From Longimicrobiales bacterium (GTDB taxonomy: Bacteria; Gemmatimonadota; Gemmatimonadetes; Longimicrobiales; Gaopeijiaceae): a stretch of DNA of 64,000 nt. Where the stretch lies: positions 384,001 through 448,000 of the forward strand of contig CAXXKM010000002.1 in NCBI GenBank assembly GCA_963664435.2, written 5' to 3'. Positions 33,378 through 42,599 of the stretch are shown one piece after another. The position numbers and the translations under genes are program-made. The number at the start of each line of letters is the position of its first letter. Position 1 is the stretch's first letter. The notes under the pieces were generated by a model. The model searched no databases. It saw nothing but the letters and a program-made list of their open reading frames with translations, and was not told where the DNA came from.

Positions 33378-34272
33378 CGCCGGCGAGTGGGGCCGGAACC
33401 GGGTCCGGGTCTTTCCGGATCCGAAGACTGGCCTGTACCAGTTGGAGTGGCGGGAGAACGGGCGCAGGCTCACCCGGTCCCTCAAGCACCGCGACTGGGC
33501 AAGGGCCAAGCGGCAGGCGGACGAGTTCGCCGCTGGCGTCGCGATGCACGAGCCCGGCGCCAAGGCGGAGACCGAACCCGAGCCGTTCAGCTTGGAGAAG
33601 CTGTTTGAAATCTACGGTGAGGAGGTGACGCCGACCAAGAGTCGGCGGTCGCGGAGCTACGACGGGACCGCGATGGAGATGTTCTTGGGATTCTTCGGGA
33701 AGGACCGGAGGCCCGGAACGCTTTCGCGGCGCGACTGGGACAGGTTCATCCGGGTGCGCAAGGCGGGCAGGATCGGGCCGAGCGGAAAGCCAGTGTCCGA
33801 CCGAACGGTCGAACGGGACCTGACGTTCCTGCTCGCGATCCTCAACTGGGCCGCGAGGTCGAGGGACCGGCAGGGACGGCTCCTCCTGCGGTCCAACCCG
33901 CTGAGGGGCCTCATGGTGCCGAGGGAGAAGAATCCGAACCGGGTGCTGCTCACGCAGGCGGAGTACGAAGCCCTGCTGGAGGTGTCTGTGGAGATGGACT
34001 GGCGCTTTCGCGTCGCGCTCGTGCTCGCGCCCGAAACCGGTCACCGGATCGGGGCGATCCGCAAGCTCAGGTGGTCGGACATCGACGTGGGAGCCGGTGT
34101 CATCCGGTGGCGGGGCGAGCATGACAAGACCGGCCACGAGCACCGGACGCCGGTGACAGCCGAAGCGCTTTCGGTCTTGGAAGAAGCCCGCGGACACAAC
34201 CCCGGGATCGGGGACGTACCGCTGCTGCCAGCGCCGAGCGATTCTTCGCGCTGCGTCCGCCGCTGGCAGGCC
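33378..34272 (+). pseudogene. Truncated tyrosine integrase (paralogue of 41436-42599)
   Basis: Highly similar to the intact copy from GEWGRNRV to CVRRWQ; no start, LAHETG changed to LAPETG, lacks HxxR and the catalytic Tyr. Confidence 0.9.
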
Positions 34273-34522
34273 AGGCGCTCGCGGAGCCGTTACCTTTCAG
34301 AAGCCCCGACCACTGCCAAGGTTAGTGCGCCGCGGGGGGCGGGACCCGGCGTTGAGCGACTAACCTCTCCCGGGGGGACACCATGGCACCTTGAAGCCCG
34401 CTAGGTCGAGATCGCCGTTCGCCGGGTCGGCTCCGGGATGTCTAGCCGGTAGCGCACGGAGTCCGGTGAGCTAGATTCGGGTTCGTAGCCATTCGCCAGT
34501 CAGACACCCGGGGGGACGATCC

Positions 34523-35662
34523 ATGATTCAGAGATTCTACGCGGACAACTTCCGCTGTCTCGTGAACTTCGAACTGAAGTTCGACGAGCTGAATGTCTTC
34601 TTGGGCTCGAATGGCACCGGCAAGAGCTCGGTGTTCGACGTGCTGCTGAAGATTCAGAGCCTCGTCTACCGAGGCAGAAAGGTCGACGAGGTCTTCCGAC
34701 GAAGGGACCTATCACAGCTTTACGCCGGCAACCACCAAGACAGCGCTGGCGACCACGAGGACAGTGGCGTGCGGCAGAAGATTGAGCTTGATCTCGACAT
34801 CGCGGGTCACTCGTACCACTACCGGTTGAGCATCGGCCACCGCGAACCCAAGCTAATGCGAATTGACGAGGAAGTCCTTCTGTGCGACGAGAGACCCCTC
34901 TTCGAGTTCCGAATCGGCGACGCTCAACTGTACCGGGATGACGGAAGTCAAGGACCGAAGTACCCGTTCGATTGGACGCAATCCGGACTCGCTGCCCTGC
35001 ATGAGCGGCACGACAACAAGAAACTGTCTCGCTTCAAGAGGGAGTTGGCGATGTGGACCATCGTCCGACCCTGCCCGCCGATCTTCGAGGAGGAAGCCAG
35101 GACGGAGGACGAGCTTCTGACACAGGCTATGACCAATTTTGTCGCGTGGTACCGCAGGGTCTCCCCTGAGCGGCTGGGCGCTGCCGTGGACCTACTGGGT
35201 GATCTCCGTGACGTGCTTCCCTCATTTGAGTCACTGAGTCTCATTGCCACTGGTGAAGATGCTCGTGCATTGGAGGCTGTGTTCAAGCGGCCACACAAGC
35301 GTTCGCGGTACCGGATCGGGCAGTTGTCGGACGGGCAGCGGGCGCTGATCGCCCTGTATTGCCTACTGCGTTTCTGCGACGGAGGGGGGGCGAGGGCCTC
35401 GCTGTTCGTCGACGAGCCCGACAACTACATCTCGCTGCGTGAAGTGCAGCCGTGGGTGGTGGCGCTCTCCGAAGCTCTGGGAAACACTCTCGAACAGGCT
35501 GTCATCATCTCCCATCACCCCGTGACAATCGACTACCTGGGCGGGAAAGCCAAGTGGTTCTTCCGGGACGACGACGGACTGGCGCGGGTGAAGTACGAAC
35601 CACCTTCGTCGGCGGGGCCGGCATCCTATTCCGAATTGGTCGCACGGGGTTGGGAGCGGTGA
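34523..35662 (+). CDS. AAA_15/AAA_21-type ABC-fold ATPase
   Basis: NFRCL, GSNGTGKSS, LSDGQRAL, FVDEPDNY, ISHHP. Confidence 0.9.
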   Translation: MIQRFYADNFRCLVNFELKFDELNVFLGSNGTGKSSVFDVLLKIQSLVYRGRKVDEVFRRRDLSQLYAGNHQDSAGDHEDSGVRQKIELDLDIAGHSYHYRLSIGHREPKLMRIDEEVLLCDERPLFEFRIGDAQLYRDDGSQGPKYPFDWTQSGLAALHERHDNKKLSRFKRELAMWTIVRPCPPIFEEEARTEDELLTQAMTNFVAWYRRVSPERLGAAVDLLGDLRDVLPSFESLSLIATGEDARALEAVFKRPHKRSRYRIGQLSDGQRALIALYCLLRFCDGGGARASLFVDEPDNYISLREVQPWVVALSEALGNTLEQAVIISHHPVTIDYLGGKAKWFFRDDDGLARVKYEPPSSAGPASYSELVARGWER

Positions 35663-36207
35663 GCGCGAGCGTGATTCTGCTCTGTGAGGACCTGCAGACG
35701 GACATGTTCGTGCGTCGCTTCCTCCGTTGCCGGTTTGGACGCCGGTTCCGTCGCCGGATTCACAGTATTCCGTGTGCGGCTGGGAGTGGATCCGGTGAGC
35801 AGCGCGTGCGTGAGCAATTTCCCGACCAGCTGAGGTTGATTCGGGGTCGGCGGGGGGCCGCCCTGATCGTGGTCATCGATGCCGACACGGAATCGGCGGA
35901 AGCTCGTCGAACGCAGCTCCAAGGGCAGTGTGCGGAACGGGGCATCGCGGCTCTCCGAGCTTCGGATCCGGTTCTCGTAGTGGTTCCGCGCCGCAGTATC
36001 GAGACGTGGTTCCGCTACCTGAGCGGCCACGAGTTCGACGAGACGACCCGCTATCGGCACCTTCGGCGTGAAGCCGATTGCCAGCCACTGGCCGACCGGC
36101 TGTACGACATGTGCCACAAAGATCAGAAGCTCGCGGAGCCGGCCCCGGCCTCGTTGGTTGAGGCGTGCCAGGAATACCCAAGGCTGACGGGCCTGCTACA
36201 ACGATGA
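35659..36207 (+). CDS. TOPRIM-like partner (DUF4276/RloB-like)
   Basis: ILLCED, VVIDADT, PRRSIETWF motifs; GTGA overlap with the ATPase. Confidence 0.6.
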   Translation: MSASVILLCEDLQTDMFVRRFLRCRFGRRFRRRIHSIPCAAGSGSGEQRVREQFPDQLRLIRGRRGAALIVVIDADTESAEARRTQLQGQCAERGIAALRASDPVLVVVPRRSIETWFRYLSGHEFDETTRYRHLRREADCQPLADRLYDMCHKDQKLAEPAPASLVEACQEYPRLTGLLQR

Positions 36208-37034: not shown

Positions 37035-37453
37035 GCAATTCAACCGATGCTCCCAGTTGGAGTGGAGCTAGCCGGGTGGAAGGTGCGCGAGCCCCACCGA
37101 CGAAGCGAATCGAGGGACGCGGAGCGGCGCGAACGCCCGACCCTGTCGAATCCTCTACCGATGATTTGTGCACCTCCAGCGCCGTGAGTCATGACCGTGT
37201 ACGCCCGCGAAAACGACATGGGGTGCCGATGCGCACCGCGGCACTCGGGTCGTGCGCACCGGCGGAGCGGTCGAAGCTTCTGCGCACAAAGGGCTTGAGC
37301 GTCGCGGTCCCAGCCGACCGGGGCCGCAGGGCTCGCTCGGCCGTGGCTGGGAGTATCCATGTCAAGTGGATGCCCGTTTTGAGGCAGAGTGGACCTGTCT
37401 CGCGGCGTCCCTCCCGACGCCTCGGTTGCGGTGTCCGCTGTTGCTTGGCGCGA

Positions 37454-38456
37454 TCATCCGTGAGCGCTCCCCGCGTGGCAGGGCGTGGGGAAGATGGGGC
37501 TGGTGTACTCTCTCGGCGGATGTTCGGTCCAGATGCGGTCCTGCTGGACGAGCGTGTTGGCGAGGACGAGGAGCTTCCGCATCACGGCAGTCAGAGCGAC
37601 CTTCGGCGGCTTTCCCTTGGCGACGAGCGCCTCGTACTTCCGCTTGAGGTCGGGATTGTGCTGGACCGCGACCAGCGTGGGCATGTAGAGCAGCCTGCGG
37701 ACCCGGTGCCTGCCGCCCTGGATGAAGCTGCGTCCCTTCCAGTGTCCGGACTCCCGGGTGACCGGGGCGAGTCCGGCGAGGCTGGCGGCCCGGGGCCCAG
37801 GGAGCATGCCCAGTTCCGGCATGTGGACGATCAGTCCCGCGGCGGTGATGTCCGATATGCCGGGGATGGAGGTCAGGATCTCGGCCCGGCGCTCCAACGC
37901 CTTCTCCTCCCCGAGCCGCCGCCGGATCTCGGCGTCGATGAGCTTCAGCTGGCGGTCGATCTGCCCCAGCTTCTGCTTGGTGATCCGCCTGCCCACCGGC
38001 GTACGCAAGTGCTTGCCACGGTTGGTGGTGGCGACCCGGTCCTTGCGCAGCGCGTCGCGGATCTGCTGGAGCTCCGCAAGGTCGCGCTGTCCTTTCGATC
38101 TCACCTCGGTCGGACGCAGGTCCTCGATGGCCGACGCCATGATGGCCAGCGATCCGGGCGTCCACCGCGTCGGTCTTGGCGCGCCGCCCGATGGAGCGGG
38201 CGAAGGACCGGACCTGGAAGGGGTTGATCGCATAGAGGGGGAGTCCGGCCTTCAGGAGGGTATCCTCGAAGTCGCGGTGGAAGGCTCCGGTGGGTTCGTA
38301 CGCGATCCGGTCGACCCCGAGGCCGATCCAGGCGATCAGCTTGCGGAGGCCGGCCCTGTCGTTGGGGAACCGGGATGCTCTCCCCTCGGGTGCGGCGAAG
38401 GCATCCAGCCAGTCCTTGGAGATGTCGATCCCGACGGTGCGAAGGATGGTGCTCAT
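37454..38456 (-). pseudogene. IS110 DEDD transposase/recombinase with +1 frameshift near 38151
   Basis: GIDISK, YEPTG, KTDAVDA (DEDD); SIPGI, LAGLAP..RESG (catalytic Ser), GGRHRVRRLLYM, AVMRKLL in the second frame. Confidence 0.92.
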
Positions 38457-38462
38457 GAGTTC

Positions 38463-38690
38463 TTCCCTTCTCCTGTGCTTGTCGTGCGAGCCTCGATGCT
38501 CGAGTATCCATTCAGGACAGAGGGAAGGACGGTGGCGATCAAACTCCCAGACGGCCCCTGACGGCCAAGCGACCCATCGATCCGACCACCGTCCCTGTTG
38601 AGCGCCCGCTCCGGCTCGCTACGCTCGCCTCTGCGGGCGCTCAACAGTCCGGGCCTTCCCCGTGACCCGGTCCTGCAAATCAAGCAGGGA
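38463..38690 (-). ncRNA. IS110 bridge RNA (5' stem-loop, target-binding loop, donor-binding loop)
   Basis: Target loop 38527-38594 carries GGGTCGCT and CTGGGAG; donor loop 38472-38516 carries ATGGATACT and GACAAG; all match the flanks or ends; transcript boundaries approximate. Confidence 0.85.
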
Positions 38691-38896
38691 TCTCCAAGAA
38701 TGGAAGAGACAAGCGACCCCGCAGTCCGAGGGCCTGCTACGGGTTCGGGGCCGGGCGCGTTTGCGCACCCCGGCCCCGCCCCCTCGGGTCGCTCCCAGAC
38801 CCAGCAATCCCTTGCGGGAAGGCCGTCGAGCCCCTGTTCCGGAGCTTGGTGGCGTCCGACCGCCGAACCCGTCGCCGCCGGGAACGCCAGCCGGGC

Positions 38897-39345: not shown

Positions 39346-39800
39346 GTCGGTTCTCCCTCGCGTGGTTCAGGATGCTCCGGCCATCCGAGGAGGCTTCGCC
39401 GCTCTCCACCGGGGCCATCGCTCGCAACGGGCTGACCAAAGCTCGGCGCACTGGCCTTCCTCAACAAGGTCGGAACCGCGAGGGAGCCGGTTCACGTCAG
39501 CTGCCCAACGCCTTCCCGCACGGGATTGATGGCCGGGAGTGACCTCGAGGCGGGGGTGGGATGGCGTACACATCCCAACCATCGCCGTGGCGTGTGAGGC
39601 ATGCCGAACACCGGGGTCACTCCCGTCACGACCGCACCATCCGGTACGGCACCGCCGTTCGTGCGGCCGTGGTGCAACCGCAACGCGGGCAGCGACATGC
39701 GGAATCCCCGCCCCTGCACATTGACACGGCGATTCCGTGCACATGCACCCCGATGTCGATGTGCACGCGCGGTACGCCACCGGCCCCGGCCGATCGGCGG

Positions 39801-40140
39801 TCAAGAACCCTCTCCTCGAAACCGGCTCGAACGCCATACCGAATGGCCTTGGATCATTCCTCCGGGGAGGCCCGATCGGAGCAAAACCCTCATCGCGACG
39901 AGGCGGTGAAGGCAGCCGTTGAGACCGCCCAGTTCCTCGACCGTCGAGGTATCGTAGGCGGGGTCTGCGTGGACGAACACGGCGCGGTCGGAGTCCAGCG
40001 CCGCGGGGAAAGTACCGCCGCGCCCCGGTAGACGCGGACGGGCCGCATGGAGCGGTGGATGCCGAGCGCCTCGAACGCGTCCACCTTCTCGGTCTCGGTC
40101 GGAAGCCAGCCAGCGGACGCGCACGAAGCGACCGACGACC
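39801..40140 (-). pseudogene. Possible decayed TylF/MycF-type methyltransferase fragment
   Basis: Frame-broken pieces KVDAFEAL and TFPAALDSDRAVFVHADPAYDTSTVEEL resemble TylF motifs; weak. Confidence 0.25.
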
Positions 40141-40444
40141 CGGACGGGCTGGACGGGGTAGTGGATGGAGGGTCGCCTCGTCCCGAGGGCGGATCCTTCG
40201 GTCGGCAAGCTGCGAGCCGAGGGGGGTCGCCAGCTCCCCGACTCCAAGACTTACGACCGCCGGCGTGTGCATGCGACATGCAGGGGTCGATTCACACTTC
40301 GGGCTTCCGGGGATTCACACGGTCGCCGACGGGCATCCGCAGACCGCGCAACGTCTTGAGGTCCAGTCGCAAACCGGGCGTTGTCGGACGAGCCACTCTG
40401 GCGGTGGTGGGAGCGACCCGTCAGTCCGAGGGCCTGCTACGGGT

Positions 40445-40981
40445 TCACAGAGCTGATCCAGGATCCCAAATGATGCTCCCAACCTCTTCTTCCGGGTGAA
40501 TGACCACGACGGGGGACTTGGCTATCTCGCGCGAGCTTGTCGTATTGCCGGTGGCAAGCCATTCGCGAACGCAATCGCGGGGGAAGCCTCCCGCGCCGCA
40601 GGCAATCGATCGGCCGATTAGATCGACCCGACGTCCTCGCCAAGCATCGGCGGGGCGCCGACCAAACCGCGAGTGGCCGAAATCCCGCTTGCCGCGCCGG
40701 CGGTAGGGGAACGGCCGCTCCGGGGATTCCCGAAAGAAGGCCCAGACATCAAAGTCCTTGACTCCGCGATCCTGGTGGACGAAGTGCCCGGCAGCACCTT
40801 GGCAAAGGCAGACGAGCATCAGGCGATCCCGGTAGATACGGCCAGTCTCGGAACGTCGTTGGAAGAGGTCAGCAAGGTCACCGATAGCGATTTCGGCGAG
40901 CCTGTGAAGATGATGCGGCTCAATCGTTTCCCACGACCGCTCTGTCACGGTATTCGGGGTAGTTTGTTCGTGTTCGGTCAT
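40445..40981 (-). CDS. Nucleotidyltransferase-fold-like hypothetical protein
   Basis: GGAGG RBS; LCQGAA..GVKDFDVWAFF (DxD) and RRVDLIGR (third Asp) resemble the pol-beta NTase signature. Confidence 0.5.
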   Translation of the reverse strand: MTEHEQTTPNTVTERSWETIEPHHLHRLAEIAIGDLADLFQRRSETGRIYRDRLMLVCLCQGAAGHFVHQDRGVKDFDVWAFFRESPERPFPYRRRGKRDFGHSRFGRRPADAWRGRRVDLIGRSIACGAGGFPRDCVREWLATGNTTSSREIAKSPVVVIHPEEEVGSIIWDPGSAL

Positions 40982-41435
40982 GGATTCCTCCCAACATGCG
41001 AACGCAACTCACCTCAAAGTTCAAGTTAGCGCAGGCCGGGCAGGAGGCAATAGAGGTGAGGTCCGCGAGCCGGCGCAAGGTGCCTTGATCCGCCACTGTG
41101 CCTCCGACTGACGTTACACGGTTGGCAATCCTACTCGGTGCGCGATGGGTTCGTGATCTCATCATCGCAGTGAAGATTTCGGCCTTTCGGGACGGGCCAT
41201 GTCGGGCGGGCTCCTTGTGGCGCGCGGAACCGGGAACCGCATCAAGGCAGCGAGAAGAGCTCAGCCCCTCACGCCCACGACGGCGAGCGTGGCTACCACG
41301 TAGGCCATGATCGTGGCCTCGGCGCGGAAGCTGATCGCGCGCGCCGCATTGGTCATGACTTGACTGGCGGAAACCCCCCGTCCGCGCGAGCTTCCATGTA
41401 GGCAGATCGTGCAGTCCATCTTCGAAAGGAATCGA

Positions 41436-42599
41436 ATGATGGCACACACGAAACGAAGAAGTCGGCGCGGTTACAGCGCTGGCGAGTGGGGCCGGAACCG
41501 GGTCCGGGTGTTTCCGGATCCAAAGACCGGCCTCCTCCAGATCGAGTGGCGAGAGAACGGGCGCAGGCTCACCCGATCCCTCAAGCACCGCGACTGGGCA
41601 AGGGCCAAGCGGCAGGCGGACGAGTTCGCCGCCGGCGTCGCGATGCACGAGCCCGGCGGCAAGGCGGAGGCCGAGCCCGAGCCGCTCACCTTGGAGAAGC
41701 TCTTTGAAATCTACGGTGAGGAGGTGACGCCGACCAAGAGTCGGCGCTCCCGGAGCTACGACGGGACCGCGATGGAGATGTTCCTGGGATTCCTCGGGAA
41801 GGACCGGAGGCCCGGAACGCTTTCGCGGCGCGACTGGGACCGGTTCATCCGGGCGAGACGGAGAGGCGGGATCGGGCCGAGCGGAAAGCCCGTGTCCGAC
41901 CGGACGGTCGAACGGGACCTGAGGTTCCTGCTCGCGATCCTCAACTGGGCCGCCAAGTCGAGGGACCGTGAGGGACGGCTCCTGCTCCGGTCCAACCCGC
42001 TGAAGGGCCTCAGGGTCCCGAGGGAGAAGAACCCGAACCGGGTGCTGCTCACGCAGGCGGAGTACGAGGCCCTGATGGAGGTGGCGGAGGAGATGGACTG
42101 GCGCTTCCGCGTCGCGCTGGTCCTCGCGCACGAGACGGGTCACCGGATCGGCGCGATCCGCAAGCTCACGTGGTCTGACATTGACGTGAGTGCTGGCTTC
42201 ATTCGGTGGCGGGCCGAGCATGACAAGACCGGCAACGAGCACCGGACGCCGGTAACGGTTGAAGCGCTCTCGGTCTTGGATGAGGCCCGTGGACACAACC
42301 CCGGAATCGGGGACGTTCCGCTGCTGCCAGCGCCGAACGATCCATCGCGTTGCGTCCACCGCTGGCAGGTCAGCCGCTGGTGGGACAGGGCGGAACGGCT
42401 TGCCGCGCTGGAGCCGAAGCGGGGGCGCGGCTGGCACTCGCTGAGGCGGAAGTTTGCCAGCGACCTGATGGATCAGCCGCTCAAGGTGCTCTGCGAGCTG
42501 GGCGGCTGGACGACGGCCCAGACGGTGCTGCAATGCTACCAGCGGCCCGACGAGGGCAAGCTCAGGAAGGCCCTTGCGGGACGGAGGGCTTGCTCCTGA
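41436..42599 (+). CDS. Tyrosine recombinase/integrase, intact
   Basis: ETGHRIG (R), HDKT (K), HSLRR (HxxR), LGGW, QCY (Y); N-terminal arm-binding-like region; GAAAGGA RBS. Confidence 0.93.
   Translation: MMAHTKRRSRRGYSAGEWGRNRVRVFPDPKTGLLQIEWRENGRRLTRSLKHRDWARAKRQADEFAAGVAMHEPGGKAEAEPEPLTLEKLFEIYGEEVTPTKSRRSRSYDGTAMEMFLGFLGKDRRPGTLSRRDWDRFIRARRRGGIGPSGKPVSDRTVERDLRFLLAILNWAAKSRDREGRLLLRSNPLKGLRVPREKNPNRVLLTQAEYEALMEVAEEMDWRFRVALVLAHETGHRIGAIRKLTWSDIDVSAGFIRWRAEHDKTGNEHRTPVTVEALSVLDEARGHNPGIGDVPLLPAPNDPSRCVHRWQVSRWWDRAERLAALEPKRGRGWHSLRRKFASDLMDQPLKVLCELGGWTTAQTVLQCYQRPDEGKLRKALAGRRACS

Follow-up and report, generated by a model that had tools for sequence, protein, structure and literature searches.

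Insertion sequences (IS) of the IS110 group such as IS621 and ISCro4 (IS622) encode a DEDD and serine recombinase of about 330 amino acids, and have a long left end and a CT core; their bridge RNA carries a target loop and then a donor loop, each with a left guide followed by a right guide, together with handshake bases, and it is expressed from a junction promoter (PMC11208160, PMC11208158, PMC13626964, bioRxiv 10.1101/2025.05.14.653916). An element of this kind is described here in a 64,000-nt stretch of a Longimicrobiales bacterium genome (assembly GCA_963664435.2, contig CAXXKM010000002.1, positions 384,001 to 448,000), which is called the window; the host genome (G000) comprises 4.5 Mb with 68% G + C. 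Judged by its sequence, the element belongs to the IS110 group and is of the IS621 type on every criterion that sequence can address. It shares the features listed above, the handshake bases and the promoter being predicted, and differs from IS621 and ISCro4 in its distant protein (E about 1e-31), in a predicted RNA of ~230 nt instead of 177 nt, in up to three 5' hairpins, in the frameshift of the window copy, and in a target that is an element of conjugative islands, not a REP sequence. An IS621-type bridge-RNA mechanism directed at this island element is considered very probable, a grading that leaves aside whether the island element is an origin of transfer (oriT).

Three further sets of elements are close in one respect or another. 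ISPpu10 (bioRxiv 10.64898/2026.03.19.712850) is an IS110-group element with multi-copy structured targets, whose left target pairs with upstream sequence, and it acts in trans; its target is a REP with a 5-bp stem, whereas the target here is an island element of 270 bp, whose stem is long and branched. IS110 elements of alphaproteobacterial plasmids (Sphingobium, Komagataeibacter, Paracoccus, Asticcacaulis and Pseudosulfitobacter; ~50% protein identity) share the left-end start and the donor loop and likewise have a single long hairpin ahead of the target loop, with a donor differing by one letter that the guide follows; they differ in shorter left ends, unrelated hairpin sequence, unrelated targets and very short right ends. 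The IS1111-group elements ISKpn4 and ISPst6 (attC) and IS4321 and IS5075 (Tn21 inverted repeats) are likewise guided by RNA to a conserved cis-site of another mobile element (PMC11187229), but their RNA lies downstream of the gene, they carry inverted repeats in sub-terminal position, and the sites here are oriT-like rather than attC sites or transposon ends. Assignment to the IS1111 group, which needs sub-terminal inverted repeats of 11-13 bp and a long non-coding region downstream, was rejected, this region being upstream and the ends not being inverted repeats.

Element ends and predicted bridge RNA

On the minus strand the left flank reads GGGTCG/CT (38719-38712), the right end ATGGATA/CT (37360-37352) and the right junction CT-CCCAG (37353-37347); coordinates of all features are collected in Table 1. 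Five full copies of three variants (86-88% mutually identical) are present in the genome, all starting with CT-TGTC and ending with ATGGATA-CT. The ends and the CT core proposed in the preliminary description, which had suggested a check of other genomic copies, are thus borne out by four other full copies with identical ends and by an empty homologous site with a single CT (C1:1455630), which over 260 nt shares 86.5% identity with the window flanks once these are rejoined. A two-base core at both ends and one core at the empty site are characteristic of the IS110 group; a long left end (255 nt), a short right end (100 nt) and the lack of long sub-terminal inverted repeats correspond to the IS621-type layout. 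Four contig sets were also aligned to the window. The right junction recurs without differences in sequencing runs of two studies, of which one may represent the source sample, and one contig of run X2 joins 37351 to 38712, with 2 letters shared by both sides; as it was aligned at 85% likeness, it may stem from a sister island. A circle joint (right end to left end) was not listed in these contig sets, contigs being a form of data that drops rare forms.

Table 1. Features of the element and of its surroundings (positions in the window).
Feature	Positions	Strand	Evidence
IS110-group insertion sequence, 1362 bp including both CT cores	37352..38713	-	ends identical in 5 genomic copies
Left CT core (left target/element junction)	38712..38713	-	copies and empty site
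Right CT core (element/right target junction)	37352..37353	-	copies; runs X1 and X2 have contigs with the same junction, free of differences
Non-coding left end, 255 nt, with predicted bridge RNA (~230 nt if the start is near 38690)	38457..38711	-	fold z -4.98; consensus structure
Non-coding right end, 100 nt	37354..37453	-	comparison with copies
Predicted -10 box CATTCT, completed only in the circle	38697..38702	-	no promoter-like site found in the linear (unjoined) region
Predicted -35 box TTGACA in the right end	37360..37365	-	sequence
Two short 5' hairpins (38688-38672, 38670-38649)	38649..38688	-	fold; second pairs in 100% of cells, with hardly any variation
Long 5' hairpin with a 15-bp stem and GCGAGCGTAGCGAGC in its loop	38595..38647	-	two-sided changes at 6 of 15 pairs; pairing in 99.5% of cells
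Target-binding loop: left guide 38576-38568, inner stem-loop 38566-38553, right guide 38550-38544, handshake 38543-38542	38527..38594	-	
Donor-binding loop: left guide 38511-38503, inner stem-loop 38502-38487, right guide 38483-38478, handshake 38477-38476	38471..38517	-	
IS110 recombinase gene with an extra base at 38151, which breaks it into an upstream DEDD half and a downstream Tnp half with the serine	37454..38456	-	
5' part of interrupted class-1 element, with a small hairpin, the left arm (38798-38786) and an inner hairpin whose loop is GTGCGCA	38714..38822	-	
3' part of interrupted class-1 element: rest of right arm; GTGCGCA at 37287-37281, 37259-37253, 37236-37230	37130..37351	-	
Second, empty class-1 element, divergent from the occupied one	39509..39648	+	nhmmer E 3.5e-25
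Remnant of winged-helix gene 'MIAH' (label from first residues), a neighbour of class-1 elements in intact islands	39942..40108	-	tblastn
3' half of third class-1 element	40386..40458	-	profile search
Tyrosine integrase of the surrounding decayed island	41409..42599	+	PF00589 E 5e-17

The leader (259 nt) has a predicted fold of -128.6 kcal/mol (z -4.98), equalled by none of 200 shuffles, which comprises two short hairpins, one of 53 nt, and two stems with large internal loops in which the four guide words are exposed. A 5' stem-loop is present ahead of both guide loops, as in the IS110 group. The closing stem of the target loop is formed by GGACGGTGG (38594-38586) and CCACCGTCC (38535-38527); the target guides are GGGTCGCT (left, 38575-38568) and CTGGGAG (right, 38550-38544), and the donor guides ATGGATACT (left, 38511-38503) and GACAAG (right, 38483-38478). 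All four words occurred together in none of 20,000 dinucleotide shuffles of the leader, and three of them in 2. Every motif of the preliminary description was found again at its minus-strand position, and the fold, for which it had asked a check, contains both guide loops and the 53-nt hairpin; its IS621-type architecture, with four guides and their registers, has held up and is independently supported by co-variation across relatives. The 9/9 match that it gave for the left donor guide is present, but its length is probably 8 nt plus a linker base, because the ninth base is A, not T, in 55 of 73 loci. The first handshake bases (U opposite donor A, C opposite target G) fit the IS621-type post-exchange pairing, as they do in 69/69 targets and 68/69 donors, in columns that are invariant, and in 3/5 distant relatives.

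Comparisons between loci used a set of 93 (5 from the host genome, 74 from other genomes, 14 from metagenomes), in 73 of which the guides were parsed; of the other 20, 15 are without gene-start anchor and five (L039, L089, L091, L096, L102) failed the patterns. The left end starts with CTTGT in 70/70 loci and the right end is ATGGATACT in 68/69. Related metatranscriptome contigs X17 and X18 cover parts of related copies and were not used as evidence of expression, because they show many differences, have ends running into the flanks and may reflect DNA carry-over. Four loci (L157, L176, L178, L180) are left-end remnants of 70-105 nt, still joined to their cognate left target, the rest of the IS being gone. 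Three others (L059, L103, L045) combine left and right flanks of different target classes, or leader and gene of different variants, for which IS-mediated rearrangement, recombination and assembly chimeras are candidate causes.

The long 5' hairpin, called unusually long in the preliminary description, is real and corresponds to a surplus of ~50 nt of leader here (left end of ~257 nt against 206-217 nt in the distant relatives); however, a long hairpin of unrelated sequence lies directly 5' of the target loop in 5/5 foldable distant relatives. The two-sided changes of the hairpin seen in the window copy trace to a few lineages. This hairpin is probably the clade's version of the 5' stem-loop, which in IS621 helps binding without specific contacts (PMC11208158). 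The leader of L031 has a 9-nt duplication within the loop of this hairpin. Derivation of the GCGAGCG-AGCGAGC loop from a captured host repeat was rejected: only 3 other exact copies exist, their shared island context is unrelated, and they have no hairpin arms.

Joining the ends places TTGACA and CATTCT 17 nt apart, and in IS621 a promoter is formed at the circle junction (PMC11208160; PMC13626964). Among 66 rebuilt junctions, 20 read TTGACA-17-CATTCT, 32 TTG(T/C)GA-17-CATAAT with a right end 2 nt longer and 13 TTGACA-18-(A/C)ATCAT; the one remaining junction is mosaic. The predicted junction promoter is supported by this conservation, since a spacing of 17-18 nt is kept in 65/66 junctions despite the 2-nt indel. 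Boxes and spacing are as given in the preliminary description, promoter and RNA both being predictions.

By analogy with IS621, the element would leave as a circle, in which the joined ends would complete a sigma-70-type promoter giving an RNA of ~230 nt. The donor loop would read ATGGATA-CT-TGTC and the target loop GGGTCG-CT-CCCAG, and the DEDD/serine recombinase would exchange strands at the CT.

The pairing of guides with flanks was evaluated by permutation of guide types. Left guides match left flanks at 5.70 of 7 positions, against 4.30 when permuted (33 distinct pairs, p 0.0004), and right guides match right flanks at 2.84 of 5 against 1.73 (55 pairs, p 0.0002). Two main guide classes, ending in GTCG (class 1, that of the window) or CTGG (class 2) before the core, were distinguished, and the class of the flank agrees with that of the guide in 67/69 loci. 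Within the host genome, a variant whose right guide reads TACGGGAG instead of TCTGGGAG has CCCGT in place of CCCAG as its flank in 2 of its 3 copies. Within the clade the donor hardly varies (68/69 loci); in the alphaproteobacterial relatives the donor guide equals the element end in 6/6, including two changed letters.

Several results weigh against the bridge-RNA interpretation. Since the loci are kin and mosaic, with p-values computed over related elements, these p-values overstate the co-variation, and within class 1 alone the two tests are non-significant (p 0.09 and 0.08). Right-guide matching is loose, with positions +5, +6 and +7 matching in 20, 20 and 24 of 62 pairs, and many class-2 right flanks match their guide at only 1-3 of 5 positions. 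Two of the 69 loci (L003 and L037) occupy sites unfit for their own left guide, a search of Rfam 15 with the leader gave no match at E <= 1, and the -10 box of the window is weak (3/6). A coding-region tree of 38 elements shows class-1 guides scattered over the tree and elements that are mosaic, and no order of guide switches is claimed for this reason.

Target sites on conjugative and integrase islands

The window guide reads the most conserved octamer, in the best-conserved arm, of a dispersed element of ~270 bp (the class-1 element; 29 profile matches in the host genome), both arms of which are used as targets. This membership of the target in a conserved element of conjugative and integrase islands had been overlooked in the preliminary description, and it implies that the IS lives on other mobile elements. 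The class-1 element folds into a small hairpin and a long stem AGCGACCC...GGGTCGCT around two inner hairpins (z -4.90 as single-stranded DNA), and a type-specific word of 5-7 nt recurs at about positions 60, 207, 230 and 255. It adjoins 6/6 coupling-protein genes of the host genome, between this gene and the gene 'MIAH', in islands that also carry TrbL, VirB9/VirB10-like and ArdC genes; a tyrosine integrase lies no more than 10 kb from 24 of its 29 matches, compared with 13% of randomly chosen places. In other genomes the element was found just downstream of 'MIAH' and antisense to it at 26 of 29 loci, with a coupling-protein gene beyond in 24, and nearly the same element type as in the window is present in an intact island (L118). 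Class-1-guide insertions occupy the class-1 element at 17 of 18 distinct sites, and crossings between class-1 and class-2 elements by a guide of the other class number zero. The window neighbourhood is a decayed island of this family, as seen from two more elements, the 'MIAH' remnant and the integrase; the left arm at 38798-38786, read on the plus strand, is a second, empty and perfect 13-mer target.

Class-1 elements often stand back to back, 106-141 bp apart, as at C1:1351530-1351921, C1:1455287-1455654, C3:17041-17425 and C3:429307-429713 of the host genome; in other islands 0.7-1.9 kb separate the members of a pair. At C2:125000-137000 and C3:63500-75500 a duplicated multi-kb block contains two class-1 elements, an Ig-domain/peptidase M8 gene and a periplasmic-binding gene.

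Class-2 guides read xxGCTGG/CT, and 31 of their 42 distinct sites lie in a second structured element with 26 matches in the host genome. There, the class-2 motif is located 264-306 nt upstream of a mobC Pfam match, on the opposite strand, for 9 of 13 mobC genes, which are followed by an MbeA-like relaxase (NF047848 MbeA, E 1.2e-28, below the cut-off). A divergent mobC within 450 nt was found at 16 of 46 loci with class-2 guides, against 0 of 21 with class-1 guides. The ColE1 oriT octamer CTGGCTTA contains nic (PMC5703827). This octamer is exact in 5 of 15 class-2 seed copies, and 4 of 15 empty seed copies read GCTGG-CT-TGTC, which is the sequence that an insertion creates. The class-2 site thus has, as in ColE1-type oriT with mobC and MbeA (PMC5703827), the octamer or a variant of it upstream of mobC and a relaxase gene; the relaxase differs in its motif H-x-E-x-G-G-x-H-V-H, with three histidines in place of HEN, for which reason it is called MbeA-like and not a strict member of MOB-HEN. 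It is quite probable that class-2 guides aim at a ColE1-type oriT motif.

If the nick is placed within the octamer as in ColE1, the IS would be inserted just 3' of the nick and would transfer first. Interpretation of class-2 targets as integron attC sites was dropped, since they mapped to mobC and relaxase genes. Tandem duplications of 4 to 11 nt (CTTG, CTTGCTGG and others) were observed at seven class-2 insertion sites (L044, L052, L053, L055, L060, L062, L081) and in none of the empty copies of the host genome; they may have been left behind by imprecise excision, or by relaxase and IS acting on the same spot.

For the class-1 element, an oriT function is given about an even chance. MOB-C relaxases are related to restriction-type nucleases, and TraX binds repeats 70-120 bp from nic (PMC12857230). 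The layout of the class-1 target resembles this: an inverted repeat and distant repeats, its three type-specific words lying ~85-135 nt past the stem, beside genes for a coupling protein (in 6/6 islands of the host genome and at 24/29 'MIAH' loci of other genomes) and for a protein with a nuclease-like predicted fold. An oriT is the best guess because the nuclease-like 'MIAH' fold and the repeat layout resemble MOB-C and TraX. The predicted 'MIAH' fold (pLDDT 94, L019:3691-4623; 1,836 cluster representatives) consists of a winged helix and a C-terminal domain. The latter has middling structural matches to SdaI (Z 7.0, root-mean-square deviation 3.9, 122 aligned), a Pyrococcus repair endonuclease (6.7) and the BspD6I nickase (5.9), and on this model 'MIAH' may be an unrecognised relaxase or oriT-binding protein. 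Three results speak against the oriT label: 'MIAH' has no Pfam or NCBIfam relaxase match, in which the class-1 neighbour differs from known MOB-C systems, its matches to nuclease folds are only middling (Z 7.0 at best), and PD-(D/E)XK residues are not evident. It could be assigned to no clear family with Pfam, NCBIfam, PDB sequence, ESM Atlas or Foldseek, the nearest named ESM Atlas cluster, DUF5697 at 0.87, being a lead only.

A reading with a substantial, if rather less than even, chance is that the bridge mechanism is right and the class-1 target is not an oriT but a single-strand origin, an operator or promoter bound by the winged-helix protein, or a structured RNA, used as a multi-copy safe harbour; REP sequences are used by IS621 and ISPpu10 in this manner. 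A recognisable relaxase is absent beside the class-1 element according to family searches (Replic_Relax, TrwC and MobA have no match in the genome), the N-terminal domain of 'MIAH' resembles MarR regulators in structure searches, and an orientation-fixed, strongly folded single strand suits several functions; Rfam gave only sub-threshold chance matches to the target hairpin. Its position between 'MIAH' and the coupling-protein gene in all six islands argues instead for an oriT, as do the inverted repeat followed by type-specific repeats at a TraX-like distance, the restriction-type nucleases among the best C-terminal fold matches, and sibling guides that aim at an oriT-like site.

Pairing alone may not explain the site preference, because near-matches to the 13-mer target lie mostly outside class-1 elements: with two mismatches, 177 occur in the genome, of which 24 are inside these elements, which counts against guidance by RNA alone. 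It is possible, on balance doubtful, that RNA pairing is necessary and not sufficient, the recombinase also needing the target's own stem, formed by the left target and an arm upstream of it, as reported for ISPpu10 (bioRxiv 10.64898/2026.03.19.712850). The left target is indeed the 3' arm of a stem in both target classes, and the many near-matches outside the element are rarely used. However, the complementary arm is ~80 nt away across a branched loop, against a 4-nt loop in ISPpu10, 11 of 42 class-2 sites and 1 of 18 class-1 sites lie outside the elements, and purifying selection against insertions in genes could yield the same bias.

Recombinase, frameshift and possible action in trans

Alignment to the paralogues places an extra C at 38151, just after the DEDD motif, resulting in a +1 frameshift; PF01548 (RuvC-like DEDD domain) and PF02371 (Tnp domain with the catalytic serine) are therefore matched in different frames of the window gene, and both domains are whole in the paralogues. 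The C-terminal half of the window gene is 84% identical to an intact paralogue of 332 amino acids, which scores 209.5 bits with NF033542 (NCBIfam IS110, cut-off 140). When this paralogue is aligned to the chains of IS621 (E 1.5e-31) and ISCro4 (E 4.3e-30), its D, E, D, D and S coincide with the catalytic residues given for IS621 (PMC11208158). If the frameshift is real, a whole recombinase cannot be made by the window copy. Four intact paralogues could nevertheless move this copy, whose ends and RNA are undamaged, or use its RNA in trans, since all variants share one donor site.

That the window copy is intact and autonomous, the extra base being an assembly error, is considered unlikely. A broken frame is found in only 2 of 38 distinct full elements, and all aligned contigs covering 38151 are without the extra base; these contigs are, however, relatives with 27-43 other differences and not the window variant, and the extra base lies outside any homopolymer run.

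One locus bears on action in trans. L003 (host genome; ~98% identical to L031 along most of its length) carries a class-2 guide with 3/8 left matches at its site, which instead matches the guides of L106/L107 at 7/8 and 6/7 positions; as the same insertion exists in G304, it counts as one event. The simplest explanation is insertion in trans via the RNA of another variant; alternatives are replacement through recombination and half-match events (bioRxiv 10.64898/2026.08.31.748434). The site of L003 (L003:2910 region) represents a third target type, with three empty homologues in the host genome (C3:406939, C1:720804, C2:768689), which lie ~120-160 nt beyond class-2 elements and may belong to an extended oriT region. 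In G304, a second IS110-family element of ~1.4 kb (L175, G304:C2, ~192350-193760; PF01548 and PF02371, IS1111-like inverted ends) interrupts the left target guide of an L003-type copy, and the same end abuts the left core of L047; it seems to target the GGCTG-GCT motif too, the guide serving as a decoy target.

Target choice by protein-DNA contact alone, with guide matches as remnants or chance, is highly improbable in spite of the loose right-guide matches of many relatives, being contradicted by the co-variation of guides with flanks: recombinases 84-99% identical sit in two unrelated target classes according to their guides in 67/69 loci, and window-like leaders with a changed guide (L035, L106/L107) have a changed flank.

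Target choice in context and neighbouring genes

The mechanism is a known one, and the novelty lies in the choice of target, oriT-like sites of islands. As a bridge RNA the present case is one of thousands: one was predicted in 85.7% of ISfinder IS110-group elements, with thousands of orthologues in all, by Durrant et al. (PMC11208160), so that its earlier designation as a new natural orthologue is fair, without implying rarity. Already in print are guides retargeted in nature (ISMch6), activity in trans and structured targets (ISPpu10), and elements that target other mobile elements (attC, Tn21 ends). No report of an IS110 element aimed at oriT, nic or an origin of transfer was found among the titles and abstract openings retrieved, although such sites could be listed in the supplementary target tables of Durrant et al. 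or Siddiquee et al.; oriT has 0 occurrences in the two seekRNA papers, and oriT-like targeting is absent from passages of bioRxiv 10.64898/2026.08.14.744561.

Tentatively, the whole clade may be viewed as a parasite of conjugative transfer origins, whose bridge RNAs are naturally re-aimed between two unrelated oriT types, one a ColE1-like nick site and the other, targeted by the window copy, a MOB-C-like origin on which an unrecognised winged-helix nuclease would act. Insertion at the ColE1-like site would rebuild a natural allele, so that transfer would survive and the IS would enter the recipient first, and guides would be borrowed in trans, a part of this proposal that is suggested by the single donor sequence shared by all variants. 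By targeting oriT-like sites on mobilisable and conjugative islands, the IS would gain a direct path from cell to cell. The loci also form a natural series of near-identical recombinases with many target loops and one fixed donor, from which the guide positions that matter can be read (left strict, right loose beyond +4). The guide furthermore points to a conserved, undescribed island element of ~270 bp and to a widespread unnamed protein with winged-helix and nuclease folds, maybe an unrecognised relaxase.

Elsewhere in the window, a truncated tyrosine integrase gene (33442-34404, plus strand) is related to the one at 41409-42599 (plus strand), and ~30 similar ones exist in the genome. At 34523-36207 (plus strand), an AAA ATPase gene (AAA_21/AAA_15) is followed by an overlapping gene without Pfam match, an arrangement that resembles a two-gene defence or toxin-antitoxin module.

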